From the IMG/VR virus record IMGVR_UViG_3300030333_002512, positions 1-64,000 of that record: DNA of 64,000 nucleotides, one strand, 5' to 3'. Source of the DNA: a virus. This document shows, one piece after another, positions 10,778-34,614 of this stretch. The position numbers were made by a program, and so were the translations under genes. The notes beneath the pieces are model-generated. The model made no database searches. It was given only the letters and a program-made list of their open reading frames with translations, and was not told the DNA's origin. Within the stretch, counting starts at the first letter, position 1. Each line of letters starts with the position of its first letter.

Positions 10778-12025
10778 TTAATCACTCCTGTAGTTTCTTG
10801 CAAAGTTGTGTATGTCATCCCAACTTACCTCAGCCGCAGTTGCGGTATCTGTTGGGATTCCTTCTGGAAGTTCAAAAGCAACTTCCTTAGCCTTGCGAAT
10901 CTCATTGTCCTTCTCGGATAGGGACTTCCTTAGTTCTGCGAACTCCTTCTTGAGAGCAGAAACATCGTTGCGAGCATCATACTCTGCTCTTTCTGCTTCT
11001 GATTTCTTGAGGGCTAGTTCTTCCTCTAGGCGATTTGCGAAGGTCTTCTGAAGTTCATCAATAGCCCTCTTCTCCAACTGCTCTGCCTTGAACTGCTCAT
11101 ATGCCTTCTCGACATTCTCAGCAGACAGATTTAGTGTTGGGAAATCAGATGCCTCTAATCCCTTGTTCACATTTCCTAGAGCAGCAGGTGCAGAAGTTGG
11201 CTTACCGCCACTTACTACTTCCTCACCAGCCTCGAACTCTCTTGTTTCATCCTCATCAAGAGCCTTTGCTTCTGAATCCTCATCCACAGACTCGTCATCG
11301 TCAGATAGTTCAAGGTCTTCTGCCCCGCCCTCATCTTCCATGTCCAAGTCCATGTCTTCATCTTCAGAATCGGTGTCCATATACTCCGCTTCCTTTCTTA
11401 CGTCATCTTCCTTGCCGATGCCGTTGATTTGACTTACCAAATCATTCAACTCGCCAAGTGCTTTTTCCAGTTTTTCACTCATTTCTTTTTCCTCCATTTT
11501 TAAAATGTCGAATTTTGCTTCCGGGTTAATCCCTTTTTCACAGATGGTTACCTCATGTAGTTCTAACTTGTCTATTTCGTTATATTGTCCAAATTCAGAA
11601 TTGTTCTTTTGCTTCTTTGAAATTGCCTGTCCACCGATGCTGAAAGACCGAAGCGTTCCTTTTCTAATACCTCTTGAGATTTCCTTAGCCTTCTCGATGT
11701 CATCGCGCATCTTGATTACTACATAGAATCCAACGTCATCCACTTCTGTTTTGTGTAGATTTCCGTTTTTATCTCGGTATTTTTCTATTACCTCCCCGAC
11801 TTGAACATTTGAATGATTTGACATTACATTCCGGAACTTCTTTTCTTCCATGTATTTGACTACTGCTTCCTTAAGTGCTGCTAGTGTGATTAGGTCATTC
11901 TGCTTGTCCACGATTTCGATAGATGCATAACCACCAATGACTAGATTATCAGACTTTAGAATCTGAAAGTTACCGTTTTGTTCCTCCTGTATATGCTGTG
12001 TCTTTTGCAATAACACTTCTCTCAC
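10778..12025 (-). CDS. Prohead protease with C-terminal scaffold
   Basis: GYAS...DKQND, H in MSNHS, catalytic RSFSIGG, LHEVTIC...NPEA (HK97-type protease); acidic/coiled-coil C-terminal half. Confidence 0.9.
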   Translation of the reverse strand: MREVLLQKTQHIQEEQNGNFQILKSDNLVIGGYASIEIVDKQNDLITLAALKEAVVKYMEEKKFRNVMSNHSNVQVGEVIEKYRDKNGNLHKTEVDDVGFYVVIKMRDDIEKAKEISRGIRKGTLRSFSIGGQAISKKQKNNSEFGQYNEIDKLELHEVTICEKGINPEAKFDILKMEEKEMSEKLEKALGELNDLVSQINGIGKEDDVRKEAEYMDTDSEDEDMDLDMEDEGGAEDLELSDDDESVDEDSEAKALDEDETREFEAGEEVVSGGKPTSAPAALGNVNKGLEASDFPTLNLSAENVEKAYEQFKAEQLEKRAIDELQKTFANRLEEELALKKSEAERAEYDARNDVSALKKEFAELRKSLSEKDNEIRKAKEVAFELPEGIPTDTATAAEVSWDDIHNFARNYRSD

Positions 12026-12037
12026 CTTTTTTTCTTA

Positions 12038-14653: not shown

Positions 14654-14654
14654 C

Positions 14655-15236
14655 TCACGGTTGCTGTGCAGGTGTCGCTGCTGCTCCTTTTGTCCCTACT
14701 TTCAAATCTTGTAGAATATCTGCCATTTGCGCATGAAGGGCATTTACTGCTTCAATAGTTCCGGGTTCCATCGCATCACCTTCTTGTAATCTGTTTACTT
14801 CGGCAGTAATCTCATCTAGTGCTGAATTCATTTCTTCAATTGCGTCTTGAACCGCCCTTGGGGAATTTAAGTCAGGTCTGCTCTCTTGTTCCCAAACAGG
14901 ATTCGCATCATCTGATTGGGGGTCATATGGGGGCATGTCAGTTCCATACTCTTTGATGATTGAATCAGTAAGAATGTGTATAGCCTTCTGAAGCATCGAG
15001 ATTGACTTCTTCATCTTGCCATCATTCTCTTTCTTCTCCTTGCCTTCTATGTTGCTAGTCTTTGGAATTGGAACCTCAGAAGGATTCTTCTTTGGGCGTT
15101 TCACCTTGAAGTCTTCTCCTAGTGCTGGCTCATCCAACTCTATGATTCCTAGATGCTTGGCTTCTTGAATAACTTCCTTGGCCTTTAGTATGGCCATCTC
15201 TAATTGCTTTTCTTCTCTTGTTACTTTCTCCGGCAT
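14655..15236 (-). CDS. Hypothetical protein, probable head-internal
   Basis: 193 aa with several hydrophobic-x-K-[AS] sites. Confidence 0.6.
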   Translation of the reverse strand: MPEKVTREEKQLEMAILKAKEVIQEAKHLGIIELDEPALGEDFKVKRPKKNPSEVPIPKTSNIEGKEKKENDGKMKKSISMLQKAIHILTDSIIKEYGTDMPPYDPQSDDANPVWEQESRPDLNSPRAVQDAIEEMNSALDEITAEVNRLQEGDAMEPGTIEAVNALHAQMADILQDLKVGTKGAAATPAQQP

Positions 15237-15244: not shown

Positions 15245-15517
15245 CTATTGTTGTGGTTGTTGTGGTTGTTGATTAAGGCCACCTGTGCTAGTGCCTTGTT
15301 CTTGATGCATTTGTATTGCCTGTTGCTCTTCTGCAATTGCTTGTTCCAATGTTGAACCACCCTTTATGAAATCAGCAAGTCCTTGATACAGATTTTCGGG
15401 GGCTAAACCTTGTGCTTGAGTAAATTGTTGCTCTAGAGCATCTAATCCATATCTTGCAACAATGGCCTCCAATAGCACTTGTCTTCCTTGATTTTTTAGA
15501 ACGTTTTCCCATGTCAT
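15245..15517 (-). CDS. W-motif small protein (MTWENVLK)
   Basis: Shared N-terminal peptide; Q-rich. Confidence 0.65.
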   Translation of the reverse strand: MTWENVLKNQGRQVLLEAIVARYGLDALEQQFTQAQGLAPENLYQGLADFIKGGSTLEQAIAEEQQAIQMHQEQGTSTGGLNQQPQQPQQ

Positions 15518-15521
15518 AATA

Positions 15522-15719
15522 TCACGCTAGTATTCTCTTCAACTTCTCGATTGCAGATGACGCTTCTTGGAATAACCTGTCTGCTTCTCCACTCTTATCA
15601 GAAGGAACCTCATGTTCCAATTCCTGTAGTTGCATGACCATTGTTTCTAGAGCAGAAGCAACATCGCTCTCGCCCCTTCTGTGTATTCCGTAAATCTTTA
15701 CTGTATCTTCCCAACTCAT
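15522..15719 (-). CDS. W-motif small protein (MSWEDTVK)
   Basis: Shared N-terminal peptide. Confidence 0.65.
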   Translation of the reverse strand: MSWEDTVKIYGIHRRGESDVASALETMVMQLQELEHEVPSDKSGEADRLFQEASSAIEKLKRILA

Positions 15720-15940
15720 TGCATATCCCCCACAATCTTGTGAATGTCATCCCACTTCATATCTCCAACCATTGCACTTGCATCCATGCTTTTGTTGATG
15801 CTAGGTGTTGGAGTTTCTACTACGACATATCCCGATTTCATCAGCAAGTTATCTTGGTGATACACGGTTTGCTCTAATGCCTTCACCTTATCCACTAGGG
15901 TCTTTAGAAGAGAAACCATCTCGTCTTTTTCTTCGCTCAT
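15716..15940 (-). CDS. Small coiled-coil protein with C-terminal MKWDDIHK
   Basis: C-terminus nearly matches the scaffold C-terminus VSWDDIHN. Confidence 0.65.
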   Translation of the reverse strand: MSEEKDEMVSLLKTLVDKVKALEQTVYHQDNLLMKSGYVVVETPTPSINKSMDASAMVGDMKWDDIHKIVGDMQ

Positions 15941-16038
15941 GGTGTCGCCTCATCCTTTCCGTCTTTGTCATGCTTTATGATAATTTTGAAATCTTTCTTT
16001 AGTGCTTCCTTCAAACTCTCTTTCCAATTCAATGTCAT
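15937..16038 (-). CDS. 33-aa W-motif microprotein (MTLNWKESLK)
   Basis: Not in the ORF track; ATGA overlaps at both ends fill the gap exactly. Confidence 0.55.
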   Translation of the reverse strand: MTLNWKESLKEALKKDFKIIIKHDKDGKDEATP

Positions 16039-16379
16039 TCTTTTTCCACTCCTGTTTCTAAATCGCCCTTTTTCTTTGGATAAACCATTCCTCTTAATTG
16101 GCGATAAAGTGTTTCATAGTCCTTGCGAAGTTCAGCCGCAGCAGTTACCAATGATAGGTTTCTCTCATCAAACCCATCAAACTTCTTCTGTAGGTTTTTA
16201 TCTGATTTAACCAAATCTAGTTTTTTCATCTCCTTTATGAGATTGGTCAATTTAGTCATATCTTGTCCCATGTATTCTGTAGGTTGAGATGATTGGAGTA
16301 GTTTCTTGATTCGCTTCTTCTGCTTTGGTTTCACTTTAGAGAGTAAATCAGTTTCTTTGAGAATGTCTTGCCAACCCAT
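16035..16379 (-). CDS. W-motif protein (MGWQDILK)
   Basis: Shared N-terminal peptide; GAGGGAG RBS. Confidence 0.7.
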   Translation of the reverse strand: MGWQDILKETDLLSKVKPKQKKRIKKLLQSSQPTEYMGQDMTKLTNLIKEMKKLDLVKSDKNLQKKFDGFDERNLSLVTAAAELRKDYETLYRQLRGMVYPKKKGDLETGVEKE

Positions 16380-16388: not shown

Positions 16389-18284
16389 TCATGTGTCGTG
16401 TATCATTTCGTTCACAAGCCTAGTGGTTAATTTAAGTTGGTGCTTGAGTGCGTAAATCTTCTCTTCTGTTTCTCTCTTTCTGTATTTGTATTCATCCGGA
16501 TTATTTCTCTTCAACCTTTCAAGCATCTCTTCGTTGTTCTTTATGGTCTGTTTGATGTTAGGCATCTGAGTATTTAGCAATCTACTTAGATATCGCAACA
16601 ACTTGTCTTTCTGTGCTTGAGAGGTAGGCTCTTTGATTTCATTCATCTCAGACACTTTAGGTTTCAATGAATCAATTGTTCGATAGATGGCTGCAATTTC
16701 TTTTTCTCTAGCCTCGATTGTTTTCTTATTCTTACTTCGACTTAGCCTAGACTTAAGTTTCTCGATGTCATCTACTAGGCTATCCATGATTTCTTGCTTA
16801 TCAGTTCCCTTGGGGAATTTCTTCCCGCCAATTGTTATCTTCTTGGGTTCTTGCTCTTCGGGTTTGTAGTTATCCCAAGCAGCAATTAGTCTTGGGAATT
16901 TACTTGTTCCTTCTGTCACATCAATGGCATTGATGTCGAAGGTATCGAATTCTTCAGAACGAACGGTCTTGTCTCTCTTTCTATTGAAACTCCTAGTTCC
17001 GACCTTTCTTAGTTTTGTGACAACTTCTAGATTCTTCTTCTTGAGTTTATCAGAATTACCTGTGAGTTTGTTTACCGTCAGAAGAAACTCAAGAACTCTA
17101 AGAAGGCGATTTATTTCTCCTGTGTCCTGAGTTCTGTCTTTTTGTGTGAACCTTTGTTCTTCGTATCCTTCCATTGAATACTCTTCTTTCAAACGGTTAT
17201 AGAATTGATTTAATTTGGCAGAAATGCGATACACTCCGAATAACACATTATCCGCATAGTCCTCAGTGAATAGGAAGTGGAAGTCCTTTCCTTCCCCATC
17301 GAACATTATTTTTTCCATCTTCTCTACTGTGGAATCTACGTCTAAGGAGAAATACCCTTTCATTTTTTGTCGAATGGGCTTTCTTTCTGAAACATCAGTT
17401 CTACCAAGCCCCTCTCTCTCAAAGACTTCAAGCATCAAACTCTTACTTGTTTGGTCAGAATAATATCTGTATGCAGACCAATCCTTTTCATCTTCATCCC
17501 ATTTCGCTTGGGGTTCTACGAATAAAGCCTTGAATGATTTTGGTATTGATTTTCCATTATAGAGGAAATCTTGTATTTTCGACACGTTCTTTCTATTGAA
17601 AAATCCTGCCTGTCTTAGAGATTTAATGTGCTTCTGCGCAGATGGGTCGCCACCACCTGTCTTCCCAACAGTCGTCAATAGTTTCTTCAAGTCGGAAACA
17701 AGCCCTGTTGTTTTTGTTGCAGCAATTCTATTAGCAGAAAGTAATTTTTCTAATACGCCATAGTTTTTCTTGTCGGGCAAGTCTTCAGCAATAATTTCTA
17801 TCACTGTTTCAGCGCGTTGGTCTAATTCCACTCGTTGCTTCATCTTAATTTCAACATTGAAGAGTCTAGCCATAACTTCCTTGAACTCTTTCATACCTCG
17901 TATTTTCTCACCATAGTCTTCACTGGCATCTTCTTGTTCCTCTTGCTCACCCATCGCTGTTAGAGTTGAATACAAGTCCTCAACTTTCTTTGCATACTTC
18001 TCTACGTCAATCTGAAATTGTTCAACTGCTGCTTGTCCCTCTAACTGCTTACCCGAAAATATTGGTTCTCGGAAAACATTTGGTAATGAGACACCTTGCA
18101 CTATTTCCATAAAGGCTTGTAAGGCCTCATCTGCTTTCACAAGGCCTTCTTCCGTTACACCCTTCTCCTTTCTAGAATACCTGTCTAATAATTCGTAGAC
18201 ATCTGCATGTATATCTCCACCAATAGGAGGGGCTTCAGGTTCTTCCGCCTCCTCCTCCTTCCGAAGAATATCCACGAACGTCAT
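16389..18284 (-). CDS. Large hypothetical protein (MTFVDILRK)
   Basis: 631 aa with a variant of the N-terminal peptide. Confidence 0.7.
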   Translation of the reverse strand: MTFVDILRKEEEAEEPEAPPIGGDIHADVYELLDRYSRKEKGVTEEGLVKADEALQAFMEIVQGVSLPNVFREPIFSGKQLEGQAAVEQFQIDVEKYAKKVEDLYSTLTAMGEQEEQEDASEDYGEKIRGMKEFKEVMARLFNVEIKMKQRVELDQRAETVIEIIAEDLPDKKNYGVLEKLLSANRIAATKTTGLVSDLKKLLTTVGKTGGGDPSAQKHIKSLRQAGFFNRKNVSKIQDFLYNGKSIPKSFKALFVEPQAKWDEDEKDWSAYRYYSDQTSKSLMLEVFEREGLGRTDVSERKPIRQKMKGYFSLDVDSTVEKMEKIMFDGEGKDFHFLFTEDYADNVLFGVYRISAKLNQFYNRLKEEYSMEGYEEQRFTQKDRTQDTGEINRLLRVLEFLLTVNKLTGNSDKLKKKNLEVVTKLRKVGTRSFNRKRDKTVRSEEFDTFDINAIDVTEGTSKFPRLIAAWDNYKPEEQEPKKITIGGKKFPKGTDKQEIMDSLVDDIEKLKSRLSRSKNKKTIEAREKEIAAIYRTIDSLKPKVSEMNEIKEPTSQAQKDKLLRYLSRLLNTQMPNIKQTIKNNEEMLERLKRNNPDEYKYRKRETEEKIYALKHQLKLTTRLVNEMIHDT

Positions 18285-18521: not shown

Positions 18522-18625
18522 CTTTTCATCTCCTCCAAACTTTTTCTAATTCTTTCATCGGTTTCAGCATTTAATTTGTCAATCTCTTCTTTCCATTTTT
18601 TTACTATCTCAAGCAAATCTGTCAT
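18518..18625 (-). CDS. 35-aa microprotein (MTDLLEIVKK)
   Basis: Not in the ORF track; ATGA overlaps with the portal stop and the next start. Confidence 0.5.
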   Translation of the reverse strand: MTDLLEIVKKWKEEIDKLNAETDERIRKSLEEMKR

Positions 18626-20295
18626 GGAACTCTCCTTTCCGTTCTCTTATCTACGTTTTTATTTCCAACACCTTTGGGCATACCGCTAAATCTCTTGTCA
18701 GGGCCGACATTCATACTAGGCTTGTTTCTCTTTTTCCCACTGGGAGGTTCACCTTTCACTTCTTCCGGTTTTCCAGCAGCAGCCATGGATGGTTTAGTTC
18801 CGCTTTCCATCATTTGCCCTATGTGTTGTTGGTCAATGTTAGTTCCAGCGTATGGGTCTAATTCCACTTGTTCATCTTCGCCGCCTTGTTGTTCGGAACC
18901 ACCCGGAGGGGGGTCAGGTTTCTTGTATGAGAATCTGCCATCGTCATCCATGTCAACATCGAATCCTAGATTCTTTATTGCTGCTGCCACGTTTACCTCT
19001 ATCTCCCTCTTCCTGAGTTTCGCTATCTCATCTTCTTCTTCTGATGGTGGTAGTTTCAAAGTCCAATCAGTGATGCCGAACTCTTGAGTCATGAACGGGA
19101 AGACGTAATCATTCCAAATGGTCTGTGCCATTTCCACTGCTCTATTAGTGACAAGAACCTGCATACCCTCATTGTTCAACCCACCACTTGCAGAGTTATC
19201 TGCCATGAATATCTTGCTCACACCATAGAAGGCTGAGATTCTATCTCGCAGGTCATCTTTCACAGAGATGTAATCCATTTCCTTCAGGCTATCCATGAAC
19301 TTGACCCATTCAATGGAACCCTTTCCGTTATCGGATTCTATTCCCATTACAGGAATGAAGTGTGGGTCTTGTTCCATCTTCTCCTTGACACCACGCCAAA
19401 ATGACTTCATGGAATCCATGTTTCTAGTTTGAACTGCCAATAGTCCTCTTGGCATTCTTGCCTTTGTATATGATGAGTTCACATAATTCTCCATCGCTAT
19501 TAGTGTCGTGACATTGTTCCAAAGCGTGATGATGGGCGACAGACCATACAATCTAGATGGTGAGTATTTGCTGAAATGCAAAACTTCGCCCTTGATGAAA
19601 TACTGTTCTACTCCATTTACTCTATTGACATAATGAACTGGATGTAATTCCGATTTACATTCCTCACACAAATCCGTTGCAGTTTGAGATACCTTATCCC
19701 TGTGTTTCAAACAAGTGTATCCCTTGCTTCCTCTCTCTCCAATTTCATTCGAGTAGATGTGCATGGTAACAGGGTCACCCCTGTATATCTCCTTGATTCT
19801 ATGCATCTTGATGCTTGCATTGTTATCCATGAAGTATTCCTTGACGATAACGAGATATGCATCATCCATGATGTTCAAATCGTCTTCAAGTTCCTTGAGA
19901 ACATCAATGAAAAGTTGTTCGGACTTGTTTACATATCCCTCAAGGAATTTATGTGCATAGTCTAATTGCTTGGGGTCGGGTTTAATCAAATCAACAGAAC
20001 CACATTGCTTGCATTGCTTAACTGGTGAACTGTGTTCCTCCCCACAGGCTTTACACTTCGATACGAATTTCTCTTCCCAAGTATATCCGCGCCTAAATAT
20101 CTCTTGTTTCAATTGAGTTACGCACGTTCTCACAATTGTAGATTGTTGGGCAATGTGGTAGATAATCGGGGAAGTTAGTAGGTATGAGGTATCCTTCTCT
20201 TGAATCCCCGGATTGAATATTGTCCTATCTGCTGGTTTAGGAGTTGTTCTTCTGAACAAATTACCCACACTGAATCTGCGCTTTTCTTCTACCAT
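18622..20295 (-). CDS. Portal protein
   Basis: EVLHF...YGLSPI...PRGLL...ISAFYGVS is the HK97-family portal pattern; lies between terminase and protease. Confidence 0.88.
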   Translation of the reverse strand: MVEEKRRFSVGNLFRRTTPKPADRTIFNPGIQEKDTSYLLTSPIIYHIAQQSTIVRTCVTQLKQEIFRRGYTWEEKFVSKCKACGEEHSSPVKQCKQCGSVDLIKPDPKQLDYAHKFLEGYVNKSEQLFIDVLKELEDDLNIMDDAYLVIVKEYFMDNNASIKMHRIKEIYRGDPVTMHIYSNEIGERGSKGYTCLKHRDKVSQTATDLCEECKSELHPVHYVNRVNGVEQYFIKGEVLHFSKYSPSRLYGLSPIITLWNNVTTLIAMENYVNSSYTKARMPRGLLAVQTRNMDSMKSFWRGVKEKMEQDPHFIPVMGIESDNGKGSIEWVKFMDSLKEMDYISVKDDLRDRISAFYGVSKIFMADNSASGGLNNEGMQVLVTNRAVEMAQTIWNDYVFPFMTQEFGITDWTLKLPPSEEEDEIAKLRKREIEVNVAAAIKNLGFDVDMDDDGRFSYKKPDPPPGGSEQQGGEDEQVELDPYAGTNIDQQHIGQMMESGTKPSMAAAGKPEEVKGEPPSGKKRNKPSMNVGPDKRFSGMPKGVGNKNVDKRTERRVP

Positions 20296-20297: not shown

Positions 20298-20453
20298 CTA
20301 TTTCTCCTTCACCTTATGCTCGAATAAATAGTCAGAGGCATCATCAACAGAACTCCAATCATCTTCAGACAAATCGTGTTCTTCGACAATTTCCTCTAGG
20401 TCATCTATTGCCTTGTCCACAGGCTTCTTCTTCAAAACATCTTGCCACTTCAT
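20298..20453 (-). CDS. 51-aa W-motif microprotein (MKWQDVLKK)
   Basis: Hand-translated; ATGA overlap with the upstream stop; not in the ORF track. Confidence 0.6.
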   Translation of the reverse strand: MKWQDVLKKKPVDKAIDDLEEIVEEHDLSEDDWSSVDDASDYLFEHKVKEK

Positions 20454-21791: not shown

Positions 21792-23225
21792 TCAGAAATT
21801 TAGCCCTAACATACCGCCTATAGAATTATTCACAGGTTTTGGGTCTTCAAATATGCCCATATCATCCAACATCAAGAACACATCATTTGGATTTTGAGAA
21901 GCAGCATTGGCAAGAGCAAGGCTCATCACAAGGTCATCGTGTGCGCCAACACCCTCAAACTTTCCGCTACTTGTGATGGCAAACATGGATAGTTCCTCAA
22001 TCAAAGAACCAGTCAATCTCCTACTAGCGTTATCCCCATAGGGAAATCTGATTTTCTGATTCTCGATGTTCATCTGTAGATTCAGAATTATCTCTTGCTT
22101 CTTCTTTCTAGTTGTATGGAAGTCTCTTACATTCAAATCGGATATATTGCGCAATTCTTGTGTGAATGCCTTAGCGAAGGTGTTTGTCTCATAGAGAATT
22201 TCTTCAGGTTGGAATATCTTTCCAATCAATCTAATCTTCTCTATGTTCTCCCTGAACTCTACGTTCTTTGCTCGGTCAACGTGAACGATTGTCTTATTCA
22301 TCTCATCATCGACTTCCAAGACGGTAATGACATTGTAGTCACCATCGGTTGAGATAGCAGGGTCAACACCAACATAGTATTTGTATCCCTTATCCTTCCT
22401 ATTGCCTAATTTGAGAACGTGGTCTTTGCTCTTGCATTTTTCGATATACTCAGGATTGAACAAAGCCGTTCCCGTAGAGATTGGGACACAAAGATACTCT
22501 CGCGTGAATTTCAATGAGCCTATCTCCGCCTTCCTTTGCATGAGAGCATCATAGTTCCATCGGTCTGCCCATAATGGTTCATTCATAGCATCCAAACACG
22601 GATACTTCGTGACAGTATACGCATCATTATCTTCTAACTGTGCGAAGATATCTGTGTAAGTGAAAGGGGTTCCAATCATTCTAAGATTAGATGAGTGGTG
22701 AAGCGTAGGTATCATGTCACCGAAGAACCAATCAGTCACTCTTTGAATAGCAGATAGGCTGAACTCCTTCAAAGGGTCGTCAATGATAATCTCCTGTGGG
22801 TGAAGTCCTCTAATCTGAGAACCAACTGAACGTTCTAGAATTGCATTTCCATTAGTGAGTTGAATGTTTCCAATTGCCCAACCCCTAGAAGGTTTGAACT
22901 TCTTTAGTGCTGGATGATTGAACATCCTATCTATCTCGCGCATGTGAACGAGAGTCTGCTTTTGGTTAGACGAGATGTATAGCATTTGAAATGGAGGCTC
23001 TTGGAAGATTAGGTTCCATACAACCCAACTGTGCATGAATACGGATTTTCCATGGTCACGCGCACAGATAATAACAGTCCTATCTGTTTTCTGCATTGTC
23101 TCTAGCCATTCTTGCATGTATTCGGGATACATCATACCGAGGACATTCTGGAAGAAGTAAGGAAAGGATGCCTTAGACAATTCCATATCCATAGAAGACA
23201 TGAAGTCCATGTTTTCTAATTCCAT
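21792..23225 (-). CDS. terL: Terminase large subunit
   Basis: Walker A ARDHGKS, Walker B IIIDD, coupling motif GTP, nuclease VGVDPA...DY...HDDLVMS. Confidence 0.92.
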   Translation of the reverse strand: MELENMDFMSSMDMELSKASFPYFFQNVLGMMYPEYMQEWLETMQKTDRTVIICARDHGKSVFMHSWVVWNLIFQEPPFQMLYISSNQKQTLVHMREIDRMFNHPALKKFKPSRGWAIGNIQLTNGNAILERSVGSQIRGLHPQEIIIDDPLKEFSLSAIQRVTDWFFGDMIPTLHHSSNLRMIGTPFTYTDIFAQLEDNDAYTVTKYPCLDAMNEPLWADRWNYDALMQRKAEIGSLKFTREYLCVPISTGTALFNPEYIEKCKSKDHVLKLGNRKDKGYKYYVGVDPAISTDGDYNVITVLEVDDEMNKTIVHVDRAKNVEFRENIEKIRLIGKIFQPEEILYETNTFAKAFTQELRNISDLNVRDFHTTRKKKQEIILNLQMNIENQKIRFPYGDNASRRLTGSLIEELSMFAITSSGKFEGVGAHDDLVMSLALANAASQNPNDVFLMLDDMGIFEDPKPVNNSIGGMLGLNF

Positions 23226-23227: not shown

Positions 23228-23776
23228 TTACTCACTCATACCCTTTTTCAACGTGTCAACCCATTGAGGCACATTATACATCATTGTCTTCTGCAATTGC
23301 TCAACGAGTTTTGGATGCTGACTTGCTTGAATCAATTCCCTCTTCATCTGTTCTGGTAAATCTTCAGGGAGATTCTCTAAATCTACATCATTAAATCCCA
23401 CACTTCGATAATAGTCTGCGGCTTTCCTACTAGCAAAATTAATGAATAATTTCGCATTACCCTTTTCTTGTAGTAATTTCTCCACAAGTATTGGCATTAA
23501 ACCAACGCCCCTACCTTCAGGCCTTCTTGTATGTATTCCAGCACCCATTGCGAATTTACCTAATGGGGCAAATCCAATTACACCAATAGGTTTGTTTTCA
23601 GGATTGAAGGCCATGAACATTCTAGCGGGTTCTGTATACCAAAGAGAATCATAAGGTAGAAATGTTCCTCGGTCTGAACGCTTCTCAAATTGAGTATAAC
23701 CGTCTTCCCTGAAAGTTTCTACAACTTGATGTTCGGGCATTTCTTGAAAACGAATGTCAGCACTTGTATATGTCAT
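23228..23776 (-). CDS. GNAT-family acetyltransferase
   Basis: PIGVIGF...EGRGVGL...AADYYRSVGF acetyl-CoA-binding motifs; C-terminal WVDTLKK. Confidence 0.7.
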   Translation of the reverse strand: MTYTSADIRFQEMPEHQVVETFREDGYTQFEKRSDRGTFLPYDSLWYTEPARMFMAFNPENKPIGVIGFAPLGKFAMGAGIHTRRPEGRGVGLMPILVEKLLQEKGNAKLFINFASRKAADYYRSVGFNDVDLENLPEDLPEQMKRELIQASQHPKLVEQLQKTMMYNVPQWVDTLKKGMSE

Positions 23777-26750: not shown

Positions 26751-28826
26751 TCAACCAACTCCCGTCAATTCTCTCAACCAATCTCTCGGTTGCGCGACAC
26801 CTTCCTTGTCAATAATGATTGGCTCCGATACTACCTCTGCCATCTTCTTCTTAGTGGCTTCAACTAACCCGTTTCTAATCTGTGGATAAACATCATTGAC
26901 AGCATCTTCGAATGCTTTCTCCAATTTACTCATTTCTTCAGGGGTTGGTGGAGTCCCTTCTTCCCATTGTCCGGTTTCATCGTTATAGACACGCTTGACT
27001 CTAGTAATTTTTCTAACTGCTTTGTTAATTTTATTACTTCCTAACATTTGTGCTTCAAGTCTATCCAAAACTCCAACTAGATAGTAAAAACTCAATTTGT
27101 TTGTGTCTTGACCTGCCTTCAATCTAACTCTAAAAGTGCCGCCCTGCTTCTGGTCAGCAGCAAATTGCTGTTTAAAATTCTCAATGGGATTATGGTCAAT
27201 GGCACTAAAGAGAAAAGATAGGAGTCTCTCTTCTGATTTGGATGAAGGAACTAGAATGGAATTATCTTGTTTGGAGGGTTTCATCTTCGATAATGCATCT
27301 TTAATCTGCTTAACTCTTTTCTCATCGTCTGGTTGTCCGGAGTCACCATACCTATGTTCACCGAATTTCATATTTCTAATACTACTTCTAGATGGAAGAG
27401 ATTCTTCGATAGATGGATATTGAATCTTCAGTTGTGGAACTTTACCCCATCCACCTACAGGGGGCTTTAGTAAGAAATCCCTCATTTCCACAGATATACC
27501 ACTAGGAATCAACGGGGTTTCTTTCTGCATTCTCTCATAAGCATCTTTAGTTTCTTGACTCTCCCCGCGCATAGCCAATTCAAATTTAGCAAAACCTCTA
27601 GCATCATCAGCCTTCACATATTTATTGAAAAGCCTCAATACAGATTCCTCACCCTCTCCCTTACTCAATTTACGATACACTGCATCTCTAGTGAGACTAC
27701 TTTTCGTTCTATTAGCCACAAAACCCGCACTAATATCGAGTTCTTTATGTTCAAATAAATATTCTAAAGCGGGTAATACTTTCCCCGTTCCTTTTTCTGA
27801 ACCAGTTTGAACACCAAATAGTATCTTGGCCGTTTCCTTTGCAGCACCCACACCTGAATCTCCTGTAGGTGAAAGAACAGGAATAAACGCACCTCGGTCA
27901 GCCCCACTAACTTTAGTTAGAACATGCTGCAAGTATCTCAAAGCGACATTATCATCTTGGAAAGACTCAGCCTTGATGTTCTTCATGCCACCTGCTATCT
28001 TCGTCTTAGAATACTTTGGCTGATTGAAAACCTTGGCAAAGAAATTCCTCACAATTGGTTTGTCGGGGTCACCACCTGAGAGTTTCTTTCCTTGTAGAAT
28101 TGTAATCCAATCAGGAAGGGAAACCAAAACTCCGTCTGCTTGTTCCTCTTGAGTCCATGCTTTAGGTATAATTCCAAAATTGAAATCATCAGGAAGAAGG
28201 AGTTTGACATCCTTCGTGTCGTATCCCATCAACTTAGACTTGTTAGCCTTCGCTGATTTCAAGGCCTTCACGAATCGGCTGTTGTTCTTCTCCCAAAGTC
28301 GTAGTTGCTTTATCTTAGTTTTCTTTGCCTCTTGACTGCCTTCGTTCAAGTAATCCACAAGTGGTTGAAAATTTCCTCCTAAGAATTCCTCATACAACTT
28401 CAGAACTTTCTTTGGAATTTTATCCTTGTAATTAGGATTCCTTTTTCCACCTGACATTTTTGCCGGAGCGTAGTCATCCAACTTCTCCTTCAATTTCTCA
28501 GCGTTCTCCATCATTCTCTTTGGGATTGGAACGTCTGTTGCAGTAGCAGCAAATGTAACATCCTCATATTGCTCCTTCATCTTCAGCCATTTATTTTCAG
28601 GAATGGTCTTGTCGTTTGCTTGCTCGTTTATTTGATTGAATAATCTGATTATCTTATTCAAAGAACTACGAACCCCACCTAGATTCAACTCTTCATTCTT
28701 AATGCTCTCAATAATCGAATTAACGTTACCACCATCAAGGGCCATTATGATTTTGAAGCCTACTCCACCACCTTTGATTTTCTGAGTATCAAAGGATGCC
28801 TTGTGAAGTGTGGCTTGCCATGACAT
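26751..28826 (-). CDS. Large W-motif protein (MSWQATLHK)
   Basis: 691 aa, K-rich, shared N-terminal peptide. Confidence 0.7.
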   Translation of the reverse strand: MSWQATLHKASFDTQKIKGGGVGFKIIMALDGGNVNSIIESIKNEELNLGGVRSSLNKIIRLFNQINEQANDKTIPENKWLKMKEQYEDVTFAATATDVPIPKRMMENAEKLKEKLDDYAPAKMSGGKRNPNYKDKIPKKVLKLYEEFLGGNFQPLVDYLNEGSQEAKKTKIKQLRLWEKNNSRFVKALKSAKANKSKLMGYDTKDVKLLLPDDFNFGIIPKAWTQEEQADGVLVSLPDWITILQGKKLSGGDPDKPIVRNFFAKVFNQPKYSKTKIAGGMKNIKAESFQDDNVALRYLQHVLTKVSGADRGAFIPVLSPTGDSGVGAAKETAKILFGVQTGSEKGTGKVLPALEYLFEHKELDISAGFVANRTKSSLTRDAVYRKLSKGEGEESVLRLFNKYVKADDARGFAKFELAMRGESQETKDAYERMQKETPLIPSGISVEMRDFLLKPPVGGWGKVPQLKIQYPSIEESLPSRSSIRNMKFGEHRYGDSGQPDDEKRVKQIKDALSKMKPSKQDNSILVPSSKSEERLLSFLFSAIDHNPIENFKQQFAADQKQGGTFRVRLKAGQDTNKLSFYYLVGVLDRLEAQMLGSNKINKAVRKITRVKRVYNDETGQWEEGTPPTPEEMSKLEKAFEDAVNDVYPQIRNGLVEATKKKMAEVVSEPIIIDKEGVAQPRDWLRELTGVG

Positions 28827-29374
28827 TACTCTCTATTCCCCTTTTGATTTTGCTTGGCTTTCCATTCTCCGTAAGTTCCTGATTCAGTTCCACTAAGCCA
28901 AATTGGTGCATTATCGGGAATATTGATGTTATTGTCTAAACAATATTGAACAGTTATCTTCCAAGGTATCATTGAGCCTCTTGGTCTTTCATAGGTTCGG
29001 GTCTTGCCACCATACTTTGACTTGTATCTATTCTGCTTGTAATGTGTCAACTTGCCTGTGAGGAATACGCCTAATCCATACTTGGTTAATTCCGGCTTGA
29101 CTATCTTCCCATTAATCCTCACTCTTCCCAAGGAACTCATCTCATCATTCTCATCATAATCAAAGGTCTTGTGGTCTTTCTGCCCATATCCTTTACCTGC
29201 GTAGTATCTCATATATTGATTGTCGAATTCTTCACCGGGTAATGGAGAAGCATCGTCAATGAAAACCATTGGGTTTTCCCTAGTTCCCCTTGCCTTTACT
29301 GAATCCGCATATGGTTCTTGCAAATCTTGCCATTGAATATACGGCATCTTCAAAATTTCTTGCCATGTTGTCAT
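28826..29374 (-). CDS. W-motif protein (MTTWQEILK)
   Basis: Shared N-terminal peptide. Confidence 0.7.
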   Translation of the reverse strand: MTTWQEILKMPYIQWQDLQEPYADSVKARGTRENPMVFIDDASPLPGEEFDNQYMRYYAGKGYGQKDHKTFDYDENDEMSSLGRVRINGKIVKPELTKYGLGVFLTGKLTHYKQNRYKSKYGGKTRTYERPRGSMIPWKITVQYCLDNNINIPDNAPIWLSGTESGTYGEWKAKQNQKGNRE

Positions 29375-29700
29375 TGTTTCACTTCCTTCTGTTCATCTCT
29401 CGTTTGTTTCATAGCCATGCTAGTTTTCCCATTCAAGGTTCTTAGCATGGTGTAAATGTTTTTTCTCATCTCACCCAATTCAGAAATGAAGGTTCTCTTA
29501 TCTGATTCCATCCTATCCCACCACTTCTCATACTGTTCCTCAGAAAGAAGTGACTTGACATTCTCAGAATTATTCTGATGTAGCATCTCCAAACTTTCTC
29601 CGGCAGCATCTAATGCCTGTATAGTAGCATACAGACCATCCAATTGCAAAGGCTCCTTCAAGTCTTGTTTGACTTTCTTGACAACATCTTCCCAACTCAT
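29371..29700 (-). CDS. W-motif protein (MSWEDVVKK)
   Basis: Shared N-terminal peptide. Confidence 0.7.
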   Translation of the reverse strand: MSWEDVVKKVKQDLKEPLQLDGLYATIQALDAAGESLEMLHQNNSENVKSLLSEEQYEKWWDRMESDKRTFISELGEMRKNIYTMLRTLNGKTSMAMKQTRDEQKEVKQ

Positions 29701-29951
29701 TCATTTGCCTCCTTTTGTTCTCGTAGAGTCCTAGTTGCCCTATCTATAAATGACTGTTGACCGCGAGTCCTTCCTTCCGGCAAATTATGCCAAGGCATGG
29801 ATTCTCCTTTTTCATACTGTGCGCAACCACCTTTTGGATTAATCGAGACATACTCCAAGGTGCATTTTCTATCTTCATTATGAGCGCAATCCGTTGCCTC
29901 ACATAGACCAACTTTGCATTCTGCAATTTTCAAAACCCTATTCCAAGTCAT
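29697..29951 (-). CDS. W-motif protein with Cys cluster (DUF1540-like)
   Basis: MTWNRVLK; C-x4-C-x-H-N-x4-C...C-x2-Y pattern. Confidence 0.6.
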   Translation of the reverse strand: MTWNRVLKIAECKVGLCEATDCAHNEDRKCTLEYVSINPKGGCAQYEKGESMPWHNLPEGRTRGQQSFIDRATRTLREQKEANE

Positions 29952-30193
29952 ATTTCTTCCCCCGCCGCATTGTAAAATTGATAATCATCAGGAGGCTTTT
30001 CTCTCTTCCCCAAACTATCTGAACACCATTGACATAAATCAGATGGCTTAGTAGATTTACCCGGCATCCTTGCGAAGATAGTATCCTCCGATACTGGTCG
30101 AATACAATTATTCACACACAGTAGTTCTCCTTCCTTGTTATATCTGTCAGGAGTCCACCTGATTAAATCCTTGATTATGTCTTTCCAACTCAT
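29948..30193 (-). CDS. W-motif Zn-finger protein (MSWKDIIK)
   Basis: CVNNC...CQWC. Confidence 0.65.
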   Translation of the reverse strand: MSWKDIIKDLIRWTPDRYNKEGELLCVNNCIRPVSEDTIFARMPGKSTKPSDLCQWCSDSLGKREKPPDDYQFYNAAGEEI

Positions 30194-30585
30194 CTATACT
30201 TCCTCCTAAATCTTCTTTGTCCTTCTTCATGTGGGTCGCGTCTGCCGAAGTCATCTGAGCGCATTGGCCTTCCTCCTTCCGGTGTGAAGAATTGCCTGTT
30301 CTGGTCACAACGCTTCTTGTAGTTCCTTATGCTCAAAACAATGTGATACCAAACCTTGTCTCTATTTGACTCTTGAAGTAGGTCTAATAGATAACTGTGA
30401 AACTGTTCGCAATCCATTGCCTTAACTTCATCGAGTGGTGCAAGCCCATCTCGATTCATGAATTGGGGTTCATATTCACAATACATCTTCATGGCCACCT
30501 TGCAACAATCATCCCTGCCTTCCTCACGCTCATCATAGTCTTTGATTTTAGCATATTGAACTTTTAGAACATCTTCCCAACTCAT
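30190..30585 (-). CDS. W-motif protein (MSWEDVLK)
   Basis: Shared N-terminal peptide; CC...C...C. Confidence 0.7.
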   Translation of the reverse strand: MSWEDVLKVQYAKIKDYDEREEGRDDCCKVAMKMYCEYEPQFMNRDGLAPLDEVKAMDCEQFHSYLLDLLQESNRDKVWYHIVLSIRNYKKRCDQNRQFFTPEGGRPMRSDDFGRRDPHEEGQRRFRRKYR

Positions 30586-30589: not shown

Positions 30590-31156
30590 TCATCTCCAAT
30601 CTATCTCTGTGTCAAAACCAAAACTATTTTTTAGATTCATGCCTTCTAATTTCTTTGCCGCATTATCTAACACTTCATTTATTTTCTTTGCCTTTGAAGT
30701 AGTTCTGAGGAATATCGTAGAAGGCCAAGGTGGGTTTTCTTTTGTTGGTGGATTCCCGTCTTTATCAGGGCCATCATGTGTTAATATTTCCATTTTAACA
30801 TACAAAGGGTTAGCGTTAGGTCTTGGCAATATATCCAAATTTCTATACCAAAGATTTGTTCTTTGATTCCACTTTGGGGAAACCATTGTCACTTTATCTC
30901 CATAAGCCGCTTTCAACTCATCAACAATTTCATCCCACACTTCTTCTGTTTCTTCTTTATGAGGAGGTTCTGTTCCGTATCTACTTTTAGGGTCTAACAT
31001 ACCTTCGGGGTTAAAGTGGTCACGATGACGAAACACATCCTTTCTTTTCCCGTATTCATCAAAACGAACATTACCTGCTTCATCATGAGAACTAAATATA
31101 GGGTCTGAAGTATCACCCCAACGCTCATCTTTTTTCAGTATGGCTTTCCAACTCAT
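30590..31156 (-). CDS. W-motif protein (MSWKAILKK)
   Basis: Start re-set to ATG 31156 (ATGA overlap, GGAGG RBS). Confidence 0.7.
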   Translation of the reverse strand: MSWKAILKKDERWGDTSDPIFSSHDEAGNVRFDEYGKRKDVFRHRDHFNPEGMLDPKSRYGTEPPHKEETEEVWDEIVDELKAAYGDKVTMVSPKWNQRTNLWYRNLDILPRPNANPLYVKMEILTHDGPDKDGNPPTKENPPWPSTIFLRTTSKAKKINEVLDNAAKKLEGMNLKNSFGFDTEIDWR

Positions 31157-31812
31157 TGCATCTTCTCCTCCATCTTCTTCCTGACATCCAACCATACATC
31201 AGGATGATTCTGCGCTAGAACCTCCTTGACGATTTGCATTTGGTGAACTATAATCGTGTCCTGTCTCTTGTGAACTAACTTGCCCTTGAACTCCATGACA
31301 TACTTCAGACTCTCCCTAATCTCCTTGGCCATCTTAGTTAGCGAGTCGATATACTTGGGATTACCAACTTCCTCCATGTCGAACAACTCGTCTATCTTCC
31401 CCTCAAGCCTTCTGATGTTCCTAGTTAGAGTCTCGACCTCATCCAATTCCCTAGCGGCAATCATCTGTGCGGCAGACTTCTGCACTAGAGGCTGAACGTG
31501 ATTTCGCATATGACGAACGACTTGCTCGACAGAACAATCTTCCATCTTCGCTGCCATCTCCGGAGTCATATCCCCATTGTATATGTTTACTTCAATATCC
31601 CCGCGCATCTCAGATGTGCATATGTTGCAGCGTGGATTCGATGAGTCCTCATAGTGACCCATGTGATTTCGCTGATGCTTTGATGCAGTGCCACTAGGCC
31701 AGTCCATATTCTTGTCAAGTTGGTCAGCAGTCATTTTGAGTCCTTCCAAATCTGCTTCCATATCTTCCCTATCAGGGTGATTGCAAAATGCACATCTCTT
31801 TCTAATAATCAT
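31153..31812 (-). CDS. Zn/HTH protein, candidate terminase small subunit
   Basis: Two CxxC...HTH...H-x3-H repeats followed by a coiled coil. Confidence 0.45.
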   Translation of the reverse strand: MIIRKRCAFCNHPDREDMEADLEGLKMTADQLDKNMDWPSGTASKHQRNHMGHYEDSSNPRCNICTSEMRGDIEVNIYNGDMTPEMAAKMEDCSVEQVVRHMRNHVQPLVQKSAAQMIAARELDEVETLTRNIRRLEGKIDELFDMEEVGNPKYIDSLTKMAKEIRESLKYVMEFKGKLVHKRQDTIIVHQMQIVKEVLAQNHPDVWLDVRKKMEEKMQ

Positions 31813-33092
31813 TCTACTCTACCTGTTTTTGGATTATATGCGATTCTGCTACGTTCAGCCTCATCTAGTCGGTCACTTCTTATTTTATCTCGCCAATTTT
31901 GCGGTGTCCCTTCTCTTTCCTTCTTCTTTCTAGCCAACCTTTCTCTTGCTTCCGCCGTTCTTTTTCTGTTCTCAATTGCAGACTGCGCTTCTTCGGGTTT
32001 GTAGTTGTCTCCCCATAGGAATCTTCCCACCTTTCCTCTCATTCCCTTTTCAGAACCAACTTTGCTTTGTAGAGTATCAGACCATTTTCCTTCTACTTCT
32101 TTGTATTTATCAGCAGCAGATTTACCCCTTATTTTCTTATTTGCTAACCACTTGTCGGCCCCCATAGCACCAGAAACAGCCTTCGAAGGAAGTTTCTTCG
32201 CTCCTCGATACATATCTCTAAGTGACACTTCTTCCGGAATCCCACGCTTTCCGCCTACTAATGGCACTTTGCGTTTTTTCTGCCACACTTCGGGGGCTTC
32301 AGCATCTTTCATCCTTTGTTTCTTTGCCTCTTTCGCTTTCTTTCGCGCAAGATATCCTTCCGGTAGATTCTCCTTCCAATTTGTGGAAGCCCTATCATCC
32401 TCATCAATGTCATCGGGCATTGGATTTACGAAAGCCTGTGACCCCGGTTCCGGCATGTCGTATTCTGATATGTTGCCAGCCGCTAGTTGCGCTTGCCAAT
32501 ATGCTGCTTGTTCATCTGCTGTATTATCAGCATGGGATGATTGTTCATATTTGGGTTGACCTTTTGAATTTAGAACTATTTGTCCAGTATCCACATTTCG
32601 AACTAAACCTTGGGCATCTCTTTCTTCATTGTTCAGGAGTCTTACTTTTTTTGGGTTCCCCTTGTCATCTTTTTCACCAGCAAGAAAACCATAGTTGGTG
32701 GAACTAGGAGATTGAAACACCGAACCTGTTCCAGCATGTAGTTTGTTTTCCCATTGGTCTTGTGTATAACGCTCTGGTTGCAAACCTTGTTGTCCACCAG
32801 TGAAAGCCGTCTGTAATTGTTGAGTCCAACCTGTAAAGCCTTCTTCCTCCTCACTATCAGACTTGCCAACTTCCTCCTCATCCTTCTCTTCTTCCTTTTC
32901 GGGGTCTACTGCAACAGTGTCCTGTTGCTCTCCCGGCTTGTCTTGAACGATTTTACCGGGAGGGTCAGGTGCATCCATTCCCATTCCCGGTAGGGGTGGC
33001 ATTCCTCCCATTGGTGGTGGAGCCATTGGTGGAGGAGGAGGTGGTGGTGGAGTAGGTTGCTTCAGCATATCCTCCCAAAGAACGTCACTCAT
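31809..33092 (-). CDS. W-motif protein with polyproline tract (MSDVLWEDMLK)
   Basis: Start re-set to 33092 behind the GGAGGTGA RBS. Confidence 0.65.
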   Translation of the reverse strand: MSDVLWEDMLKQPTPPPPPPPPMAPPPMGGMPPLPGMGMDAPDPPGKIVQDKPGEQQDTVAVDPEKEEEKDEEEVGKSDSEEEEGFTGWTQQLQTAFTGGQQGLQPERYTQDQWENKLHAGTGSVFQSPSSTNYGFLAGEKDDKGNPKKVRLLNNEERDAQGLVRNVDTGQIVLNSKGQPKYEQSSHADNTADEQAAYWQAQLAAGNISEYDMPEPGSQAFVNPMPDDIDEDDRASTNWKENLPEGYLARKKAKEAKKQRMKDAEAPEVWQKKRKVPLVGGKRGIPEEVSLRDMYRGAKKLPSKAVSGAMGADKWLANKKIRGKSAADKYKEVEGKWSDTLQSKVGSEKGMRGKVGRFLWGDNYKPEEAQSAIENRKRTAEARERLARKKKEREGTPQNWRDKIRSDRLDEAERSRIAYNPKTGRVE

Positions 33093-33174
33093 CTGTCTCA
33101 CCTCCATAGCAATACGGACAAAATGTCACACCTGCATTCATGACGGAGATTTTCATGTTGCAACACTTCAGCAT
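33085..33174 (-). CDS. 29-aa Cys-rich microprotein (MLKCC...CPYC)
   Basis: Hand-translated; fills the gap between neighbours. Confidence 0.35.
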   Translation of the reverse strand: MLKCCNMKISVMNAGVTFCPYCYGGETDE

Positions 33175-34331
33175 TTCACAATCATCCTCCAATCTGTTTC
33201 CACATCTAGGGATTTCTTCTCGGTATCGTCATTCTTAGGCTGCTCGGTTTCTTCGGGTTTGGGTTTCGCTTCAGGCTTCGGCTTCTTTCCTACTCGTAGG
33301 GCATCCTTACCTGCCGTAGTCCAATGCGCATTGTCACCAAGTAGTATCTTGGCCATGTTGTTGCACTGCCTCCAACTAATCTTTACCCATATCTCCTCAA
33401 TGTCTTGCTTCATTCCCCTAATACCTAGAATGGCCTTGACTGCATCGGCATCCCTGTTGCTCAAATCCATGGGGTTAGCCATCAAAGCGGTTCGACAAGA
33501 CTTCGCAGGGAAGGTCTTCTGTGGTTTTGACTTGGCCTGATTTACGAATGTCTGAACTATTGCCCTCACAGGTTTGATTGTCAACATCAACTTCGCAACT
33601 TGTGGGGTTCCCAATTGTCTTCTCGTTAAATCCAGTGGATTCTCCTTCGTGATTTCCAAAACCATCTCGTCAAAGTTCTTGAGTGCCTGTTTGACAACTT
33701 GATGTAGGCTCAAACCAGTAAATTTGTCATTCTCAGTCTTGTTCCCATACAGTGCTTGCCACATAGGAGGTTTTGCCTGTCCCATATTCTCGTTATACCA
33801 AGAATCCGGAACCGCAGGTCTGTCTCTACCTTTCACTTTCTGAGCATCCTCATACTCATCTGTTCGATAATGACCATAGATTTCTTTGGCTTCTGTTGTT
33901 CTTCCTTTCTCATCAAAATAAAGAGGGTTATCAAACCTAATATTAGCCGGATTCAACCTATGCTCGCTACCAGAATAGGTATCCATCATCTTATCCAACT
34001 GTTGTAGGAAGGATTCTTGCTCCGGGGAGAATTCCTTAGCGTTGAATATCTTCTCTAGTTCCTTGAAAATTTCAACTCCGCCTTTATTGGGCATCTTTGG
34101 GCCGCTTCCTCTAAGCCTTCCAGAGATTCCTTGATTTTTTATCAGTTGAAAGAGGGAAATGCCAGTTACGGAGCCAATAGTTTCGCCTTCCAAACCACTC
34201 GCTTCCTTCTCCCACGCATTATACATCTCGCGCAAGGACTTCTTGTCTAATGTGCCTGTGAATTCCTGTCCACCTGCTTTGAAAGGAACTCTATCTTCGT
34301 CTTTATCTATGTCCTTTCTTTTTCTTGGCAC
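33168..34331 (-). CDS. Hypothetical protein with C-terminal DWRMIVK
   Basis: 387 aa. Confidence 0.7.
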   Translation of the reverse strand: MPRKRKDIDKDEDRVPFKAGGQEFTGTLDKKSLREMYNAWEKEASGLEGETIGSVTGISLFQLIKNQGISGRLRGSGPKMPNKGGVEIFKELEKIFNAKEFSPEQESFLQQLDKMMDTYSGSEHRLNPANIRFDNPLYFDEKGRTTEAKEIYGHYRTDEYEDAQKVKGRDRPAVPDSWYNENMGQAKPPMWQALYGNKTENDKFTGLSLHQVVKQALKNFDEMVLEITKENPLDLTRRQLGTPQVAKLMLTIKPVRAIVQTFVNQAKSKPQKTFPAKSCRTALMANPMDLSNRDADAVKAILGIRGMKQDIEEIWVKISWRQCNNMAKILLGDNAHWTTAGKDALRVGKKPKPEAKPKPEETEQPKNDDTEKKSLDVETDWRMIVKC

Positions 34332-34614
34332 GTTTTCTCCCCCTTATCGCTTCGTTGTTAAACAGGGCCGATGTTCCCCCGCTTGCAGTAGTGACTGCGC
34401 CTCCCATCTTTAGTTGTTCTTGCCATTTTGGGCTATCTGCCTTTTGTTCTTGATTGCCCCATTTGTTATTTGCATGTTCTATACCCTTATCTGCTGCATA
34501 TTGGGCCGCACTTCCAATTACCTTCTTTCCAGTTGGGGTTTTGGCGGCGGCTAATGCTCCCCTACCGACTGCGGCGACTACAGGGGCTACTTTTTCCACT
34601 GATTCATCTGTCAT
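34303..34614 (-). CDS. Small basic protein, first gene of the late operon
   Basis: GGTGTGA RBS; internal KWQEQLK. Confidence 0.6.
   Translation of the reverse strand: MTDESVEKVAPVVAAVGRGALAAAKTPTGKKVIGSAAQYAADKGIEHANNKWGNQEQKADSPKWQEQLKMGGAVTTASGGTSALFNNEAIRGRKRAKKKKGHR

Follow-up and report, generated by a model that had tools for sequence, protein, structure and literature searches.

Why do a dozen unrelated proteins encoded around the head genes of a single virus begin with nearly the same eight residues? This question is raised by a 64,000-nucleotide stretch of DNA (positions 1 to 64,000 of the IMG/VR virus record IMGVR_UViG_3300030333_002512, hereafter the window; the parent record measures 77 kb and complete relatives 86–103 kb), in which M-[STGK]-W-x-x-[IVT]-[LVI]-K opens the products of 12 genes in the 15.2–33.1 kb region, in two cases after 1–4 extra residues. 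Besides these, a Phe variant is present at one N-terminus, and in four proteins the motif lies near the C-terminus. An earlier note on this DNA had read the peptide as a tag that loads a variable payload into the virus head, and all 18 peptides it quoted were recovered on the minus strand where it had placed them. Among its N-terminal examples, the 12 genes with a Trp-type tag and the Phe variant stood, while MTLNWKESLK is found only on a doubtful open reading frame (ORF) of 33 amino acids (aa). The N-terminal cases are as follows.

15245..15517, minus strand: 90-aa gene, N-terminal tag MTWENVLK
15522..15719, minus strand: 65-aa gene, N-terminal tag MSWEDTVK
15937..16038, minus strand: 33-aa ORF, doubtful as a gene, N-terminal peptide MTLNWKESLK
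16035..16379, minus strand: 114-aa gene, core tagged family, N-terminal tag MGWQDILK
16389..18284, minus strand: 631-aa protein, N-terminal Phe variant MTFVDILRK
20298..20453, minus strand: 51-aa gene directly upstream of the portal gene, N-terminal tag MKWQDVLK
26751..28826, minus strand: 691-aa gene, conserved large tagged family, N-terminal tag MSWQATLHK
28826..29374, minus strand: 182-aa gene, N-terminal tag MTTWQEILK
29371..29700, minus strand: 109-aa gene, N-terminal tag MSWEDVVK
29697..29951, minus strand: 84-aa gene, N-terminal tag MTWNRVLK (7 of 7 family members tagged)
29948..30193, minus strand: 81-aa gene, N-terminal tag MSWKDIIK
30190..30585, minus strand: 131-aa gene, N-terminal tag MSWEDVLK
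30590..31156, minus strand: 188-aa gene, N-terminal tag MSWKAILK (ATG start at 31156, ORF open to 31195)
31809..33092, minus strand: 427-aa gene, N-terminal tag MSDVLWEDMLK (ATG start at 33092)

The window is built of two divergent arms, one on the minus and one on the plus strand, and the tag proved to be confined to part of the former. Automatic gene calling found it on 11 of the 28 genes of the head region and on none of the tail (0/13), cassette (0/10) or replication-arm genes (0/39), the last figure agreeing with the earlier note, which had seen no such N-termini in the replication arm. When the start at 31156 was corrected by hand, the count became 12/28 head-region genes vs. 0/60 other genes (Fisher p = 1.5e-7). 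Shuffled proteomes gave 0.21 N-terminal matches, and a strict six-frame scan of the window returned 17 matches, 11 of which lay at true N-termini. Moreover, zero BLAST matches were obtained among the tagged window proteins, bearing out the claim that the bodies behind the peptide are unrelated.

The same pattern was encountered across 60 related IMG/VR loci gathered via the portal protein (66–90% identity, except L051 at 57%), where 293 of 1,415 ORFs on the head strand were tagged vs. 0 of 1,591 on the other strand, and where 304 tagged bodies fell into 113 BLAST clusters. When all genes were clustered into families on their bodies alone, in order to avoid selection on the tag, 117 of 273 families were at least 50% tagged. 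Families were nearly all-or-none in this respect, with the portal, large terminase (TerL), lig871, p75, p74, protease, p989 and major capsid protein (MCP) families at 0% and accessory families at 70–100%. Relatives were further divided by protease similarity into clade A (which holds the window), B (46% identity), D (~50%) and C (40%). The 114-aa family, which occurs only in clades A, B and D, has 46 of 61 members tagged, the 691-aa family has 17 of 24, and orthologues of the 631-aa protein begin with MSFMDILK or MSFMDILRK (13/17 and 6/6). A single paralogous family as the source of the tag was ruled out by the unrelated bodies and the >100 clusters.

Within the head strand, tagged genes occupy two variable islands, one upstream of a conserved block (T~600, p989, a ~180-aa protein and TerL) and one between the portal gene and the lig871/protease/MCP block. 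Of the 63 matches to a strict codon pattern in five complete clade-A genomes, 61 were on the head strand, all of these within ~20 kb, vs. 1 match for a reversed-pattern control, and clades B and D showed the same pattern of tag location. Twelve of 15 tag-bearing genomes (complete or near-complete, 61–100%; E1-bearing clades A, B and D plus unclassified relatives, see below) were counted with the strict pattern and hold 8–18 tags each. The proteins themselves offered few clues, in that Pfam recognised none of the 10 largest tagged proteins and gave 6 weak single matches among 103, PHROGs gave nothing useful, and tagged and untagged small proteins did not differ in charge or isoelectric point.

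Some individual loci deserve mention. The 103-aa protein at 34303-34614 (minus strand) is untagged in the window while 16 of its 17 relatives are tagged, a case of natural tag loss. In a 95.6-kb record (G018; L350:1091-13921, plus strand), 20 of 25 consecutive genes are tagged, and seven tagged genes there have a second-level extension past the tag in common (…LKNIQISSQRTSS…), which suggests a sub-family or a longer composite leader. The cultured relative halovirus HVTV-1 was found to have neither such a tag nor such a protease end; its portal-to-protease interval (L322, NC_020158.1 64229-72563) encodes a 1,048-aa protein, a 'head assembly' protein and a 1,313-aa 'zeta toxin' protein, not many small tagged genes.

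Alignment of 215 non-identical instances gave the consensus M-[S>T,N]-W-[E,Q,F,K]-[D,N,E]-[I>V]-[L>I,V]-K, without conservation past residue 8. All six Leu codons are used at position 7, the Ile/Val and Lys codons are mixed, and the 30 bases upstream contain almost no information except a weak ribosome-site-like signal. Since codons are mixed and the flanking DNA is not conserved, selection must act on the peptide. Only codon 2 departs from this picture, with Ser being encoded by AGT in 139 of 143 cases and an A at +4 in ~92% of tags, which fits an ATGA stop–start overlap. Ser, Thr, Asn and Asp are at the same time classic helix N-cap residues, which together with Asp/Glu three residues further on form a capping box, so that residue 2 may be doubly constrained, i.e., by the ATGA overlap and by the helix cap. 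The earlier note had itself named an origin as a mere by-product of ATGA coupling as fatal to its proposal; such an origin is ruled out for the motif core, and the coupling is a probable contributor to the AGT bias at codon 2 only. Its claim of a modular tag, here one under protein-level selection, was upheld by the unrelated bodies, the confinement to the head region and the likeness to the C-terminal end of the protease-scaffold protein described below. These are the features that one would expect of a signal for capsid loading on the T4 or P1 model.

The last residue of the tag was scrutinized with a pattern that did not demand it (M-x-W-x-x-[IVLMT]-[LIVM]; 398 N-termini). Position 8 was Lys in 368 cases and Arg in 12, and every Arg case has a Lys at position 9, as do most other exceptions. 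Arg never stands in for Lys, despite a background K/R ratio of 1.4. From sequence, this selectivity points to Lys-specific chemistry (cleavage, conjugation or cross-linking) or to a very selective pocket. No residue is preferred directly after the Lys, and an acidic residue stands at K+2 in only ~1/3 of tags.

A related motif ends a small number of head-module proteins in the window, among them the prohead protease.

10778..12025, minus strand: prohead protease fused to a scaffold-like domain, VSWDDIHN at 10805-10828 (Pfam Peptidase_S78 6e-10; PHROG head maturation protease)
15716..15940, minus strand: p74, a conserved 74-aa head-module protein, C-terminal motif MKWDDIHK at 15737-15760
23228..23776, minus strand: p182, upstream of TerL, C-terminal motif PQWVDTLK at 23246-23269
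33168..34331, minus strand: p387, TDWRMIVK at the extreme C-terminus (33174-33197)

These motifs are of two kinds that differ in the end they occupy. The K-variant (W-x-x-[IV]-[LIV]-K) was counted at 226 N-termini, 6 C-termini and 36 internal positions (expected 0.3, 0.5 and 7.7, respectively), the internal cases being mostly ORFs called with an upstream-extended, mistaken start. The H-variant (W-x-[DE]-[IV]-H), which belongs to the protease-scaffold protein and p74, was counted at 0 N-termini, 62 C-termini and 1 internal position. Specifically, the protease-scaffold protein ends in Phi-[ST]-W-x-[DE]-[IV]-H-x-[LIF]-[VA] plus a few residues in all listed relatives among 50 matches, its Trp is at least 90% conserved in a 29-sequence alignment, and the ending persists in homologues down to ~30% identity in a search of 1.8 billion representative proteins (KMDWNDINAL, ELSWEEVNEL, NMSWEEVHQL and KMSWQELEAF). 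All listed relatives of p74 among 57 matches end in M-x-W-x-[DE]-I-[HNS]-[KN/x], mostly as I-H-K. The C-terminal K-variants are those of the p387 and p182 families: four listed p387 orthologues end in [SD]-W-[RK]-x-I-[VLM]-[KE] plus 1–3 residues (K in three, E in one), and the W..[VT]LK ending of p182 is also found in two orthologues. Like the 114-aa family, p387 occurs only in clades A, B and D.

The accessory tag and the old, conserved terminal helix of the protease-scaffold protein have M-S-W-x-[DE]-[IV] in common. In the AlphaFold2 (AF2) model of the latter protein, an acidic and disordered linker (204-292) connects the protease domain (residues 29-175) to a long hairpin of helices (302-383), and beyond a hinge the terminal helix (402-414) has the Trp at its start. 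Judged from this model, a conserved terminal element past a flexible hinge would be what is expected of a capsid-binding end. The AF2 model of the 114-aa protein combines a helical-bundle body (predicted local distance difference test score, pLDDT, >85) with a detached N-terminus (residues 1-10, pLDDT 58), which makes one helical turn at W3-D5 and is followed by a linker; Foldseek searches with this model retrieved generic helical hairpins only. The 691-aa protein has no Pfam or PHROG match, and its Atlas model is poor (pLDDT 0.40). Neither Pfam nor PHROG recognised p74, which is present in clades A, B and D and absent from the tag-less clade C; confined as it is to tag-bearing clades, it could be an adaptor or small scaffold. 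An invariant [ML]-L-[LM]-K element (44/44) was further noticed near its N-terminus.

The genomic surroundings are those of a tailed virus.

9381..10775, minus strand: MCP, candidate receptor (Pfam SU10_MCP 3e-10; PHROG major head protein 3e-21)
12038-14653, minus strand: lig871, 871 aa long and containing an ATP-dependent ligase domain, located between the tagged genes and the protease
18622..20295, minus strand: portal protein (PHROG portal 7e-68)
21792..23225, minus strand: large terminase (PHROG TerL 1.5e-53)

In the order of transcription, the minus-strand arm runs from a small-gene cluster over the 691-aa and 989-aa proteins, TerL and an HNH-like 446-aa protein to the portal, and from there over further small genes, lig871 and the S78 prohead protease/scaffold to the SU10-type MCP and the tail genes. 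The plus-strand arm (39.7–64 kb) encodes a UvrD-type helicase, a class II ribonucleotide reductase, a three-domain ATP-dependent DNA ligase and an RFC-like clamp loader. The nearest named relatives of the portal (~28% identity) are haloarchaeal tailed viruses and a Methanomassiliicoccales virus, which marks the virus as an archaeal-type tailed virus. With regard to the neighbours of the tagged genes, lig871 is kept in all clades, the tag-less clade C included (26–29% identity), and in six relatives it has an internal tag-like W-K-K-I-[IV]-K near residue 43. The MCP's N-terminal end (M-S-G-Y-I-R-T-M-K-D-L-E-A) shows a weak aromatic-x-x-T-M-K likeness to the tag; its Lys varies among relatives (K, R, A or T), and it is probably not a tag.

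Taken together, the evidence gives good support to a modular, peptide-level tag that sits at protein ends and is tied to head assembly. As to what it does, we give about an even chance to its being a docking peptide that mimics the scaffold and brings accessory proteins into the prohead. In this model, the eight residues would form a portable docking tag consisting of a helix-starting box (Ser/Thr/Asn, Trp, acidic), a hydrophobic face (Trp, Ile/Val, Leu) and the obligatory Lys, which the virus would place on the free end of many unrelated accessory proteins encoded in its head-assembly operon. By copying the first six residues of the terminal helix of the protease-scaffold protein and p74, the tag would let these proteins dock at the same prohead site (the inner face of the MCP or the scaffold core) and become enclosed, after which the protease would perhaps cut the tag back at the Lys. 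What we infer in this model is the receptor, along with packaging, cleavage and delivery into the host. The precedents of T4, SPN3US and P1, described at the end, speak in favour of a mechanism of this type.

Several observations weigh against this docking model. Proteins with a C-terminal K-variant end 1–3 residues past the Lys, so that a cut after it would remove only those residues. The last residues are L-K in the N-terminal tags and H-x in the motifs of the protease and p74, and the two classes may have different receptors. Five genomes of the sister clade C (80–100% complete) have no N-terminal tags, yet their protease keeps NMSWEEVHQL, so that a cargo system does not follow from the protease motif by itself. 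Across clades, tag and protease end were not seen to co-vary, the tag being essentially the same in A, B and D while the protease end goes from H to N. A Phi-Phi-K cleavage signature near the N-termini of core head proteins is not general (robust only in p74, at 44/44, partial in the protease, at 17/38, and absent in the MCP, portal and TerL). Finally, in a 36-kb unclassified contig (L331, 40% complete), tagged genes are preceded not by head genes but by giant fibre-like proteins; the locus (L331:8888-10726, minus strand as read) holds four tagged genes behind proteins of 1,702 and 775 aa, which are probably fibres.

A second set of genes accompanies the tag. The window carries, at 46114-52652 on the plus strand, a ubiquitin-like protein (Ubl) candidate gene of 71 aa, an E2-like 485-aa gene, a ThiF-type E1 and a weak JAB match, all kept in clades A, B and D and absent from C. 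In Pfam searches, the E1 (ThiF 6e-14) is the sole solid match of this set, the 71-aa candidate having none and JAB lying below threshold. E1 was present in 15/15 tag-bearing genomes vs. 0/5 of the tag-less clade-C genomes, and the Ubl candidate in 8/8 tag-bearing genomes tested. A collection-wide scan for the tag returned, among the matches listed, only viruses of the same E1-bearing lineage. However, since 13 window genes (including p74 and several replication genes) are likewise shared by A, B and D and missing from C, ancestry confounds the correlation between E1 and tag, which is therefore unspecific. One record (G021, 184.7 kb; locus L343) is ~2x the usual genome length with two E1 copies, and is likely a concatemer or a chimeric assembly.

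These genes open the way to a different explanation, in which the tag is read by a viral ubiquitin-like system, its W-x-x-[IV] core being recognised and its obligatory Lys, five residues further on, serving as acceptor for Ubl conjugation via E1, with a possible route to the particle. W-x-x-[IV] with acidic x residues is the core of Atg8/UFM1-interacting motifs (cf. WEDL, WEEL and WQAI), the strict choice of Lys over Arg suggests chemistry at the epsilon-amine, and E1 and Ubl candidate track the tags as described above. We nevertheless consider this unlikely: apart from the confounding by ancestry, the Ubl genes lie in the replication arm, away from the tags, the protease-end variant often has no Lys, the Ubl candidate and JAB are as weakly recognised as stated, and acidic residues at K+2 are infrequent. 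The Ser-Trp-x-Asp/Glu box and the AF2 model, moreover, mildly favour a helix, while motifs of the LC3-interacting region (LIR) type are generally known to bind as extended strands. A coupling of both systems, by which the tag would combine a recognition motif with an acceptor Lys for a viral Ubl/E1/E2-like/JAB machinery and so sort variable proteins into or onto the particle, seems very unlikely. It is doubtful, but less so, that the tag docks its proteins on some other common partner, such as a host chaperone, clamp or proteasome activator, or the portal, terminase or p74. Clades with only 45–70% identity in their head proteins have nearly the same tag, so that the receptor surface should be very conserved, and host-takeover genes, too, typically encode small proteins that are hypervariable and highly charged. 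Yet the tagged genes lie interspersed among those for the portal, protease and MCP, to which overlapping stops and starts couple them, a host-factor motif would have no obvious reason to end the prohead protease-scaffold protein, and no candidate partner came forward.

The obligatory Lys could also mean that the tag is mainly a recognition and cleavage propeptide for a Lys-directed prohead protease, e.g., keeping proteins inactive until it is cut, with no role in loading. T4-type tags do hold a protease site (PMC7411985), and the protease domain is the best-conserved head protein between clades (72–75%). Prohead proteases normally work inside proheads, however, so that this proposal mostly merges into the docking model; the short C-terminal remainder past the Lys, the lack of preference after it and the lack of a Phi-Phi-K shared by the MCP or most core proteins further make it quite unlikely. 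A nucleic-acid or translation-initiation feature (ATGA coupling or a recombination linker), or the remnant of one gene family, finds its argument in the codon-2 and +4 biases, and is highly improbable given the synonymous variation at all other positions, the unconserved flanks, the occurrence of the peptide at C-termini and the >100 unrelated body clusters. A DNA-level repeat as the origin of the motif core is, for the same reasons, largely refuted.

The viruses concerned are among the most abundant archaeal viruses of the ocean (the protease family alone gave 3,499 matches at E <= 1e-5 among 8,000 candidates scored), and most of their genes are without known function. Through one eight-residue label, about a sixth of the genes near the head module, from >100 families, would be given a common destination, and such 'dark matter' genes would become a defined class of candidate virion-borne proteins. 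If capsid loading is true, the system would exceed all known capsid-targeting systems in size and be the first of its kind in archaeal viruses, its tag would have originated by copying the docking helix of the scaffold/protease, and it would provide a compact handle to load foreign proteins into HK97-type shells. If the coupling of both systems is true, the virus would encode a Ubl pathway whose substrates are marked by a defined consensus tag. Two clear and separable hypotheses emerge from the strictness with which Lys is required and from the Ubl/E1 genes that occur alongside the tag.

No published description of the tag was found in open-access papers, and its closest counterparts are systems of other viruses and of encapsulins. 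A C-terminal targeting of the protease was reportedly described for HK97 gp4 by Duda et al. in 2013. A C-terminal propeptide of the SPN3US gp245 protease has likewise been proposed to target the protease into proheads (PMC7411985). The protease-scaffold protein of the window resembles these two in ending in a conserved helix after a flexible hinge, and differs in that their signal is found only on the protease or scaffold, whereas many unrelated accessory proteins here repeat the first six of its residues, and do so at the opposite terminus. The motifs known as LIR or Atg8-interacting motif (AIM), i.e., [WFY]-x-x-[LIV], are similar in their W-x-x-[IV] core with acidic residues, and E1 occurs in every tag-bearing genome tested; they differ in being bound as a beta-strand by Atg8-type Ubls with extra helices, whereas sequence and models of the tag lean towards a helix, and the viral Ubl candidate, at 71 aa, is minimal and of no recognisable family.

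The likeness to the capsid targeting sequence (CTS) of phage T4, which attaches to the core of the prohead and which the prohead protease cleaves away (PMC7411985), lies in a short N-terminal peptide common to unrelated variable proteins encoded with head genes (IPI-III and Alt in T4). The T4 CTS (MKTYQEFIAE) has no sequence similarity to the tag, which ends in Lys and lacks a Glu site, in contrast to the L-x-E site of T4, and the protease is of the HK97-type S78 family here vs. gp21 in T4. Moreover, T4 tags a handful of genes, as opposed to 8–18 or more per genome and >100 families here, at C-termini as well and in viruses of an archaeal host. In phage P1, the N-terminal 30 residues of DarB direct a reporter into capsids (PMC9024508), i.e., an N-terminal signal suffices for capsid entry in a phage with an HK97-like protease; the P1 signal exceeds 9 residues and has no consensus among Dar proteins, as opposed to the single eight-residue consensus here. 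Encapsulin cargo-loading peptides, finally, are short terminal peptides that bring unrelated cargo, from either terminus, to the inner face of an HK97-fold shell (PMC6387247), a fold also expected of the MCP of the window from its SU10_MCP and PHROG major head protein matches. They follow another consensus (G-S-L-type), as extended rather than helical peptides, and encapsulins have no portal, protease or DNA packaging, whereas portal, TerL and tail genes are present here. By analogy, the tag would work like the capsid targeting of T4 and P1 and like the encapsulin peptides, but with its different sequence, protease type and cleavage residue it is a member of none of these families.

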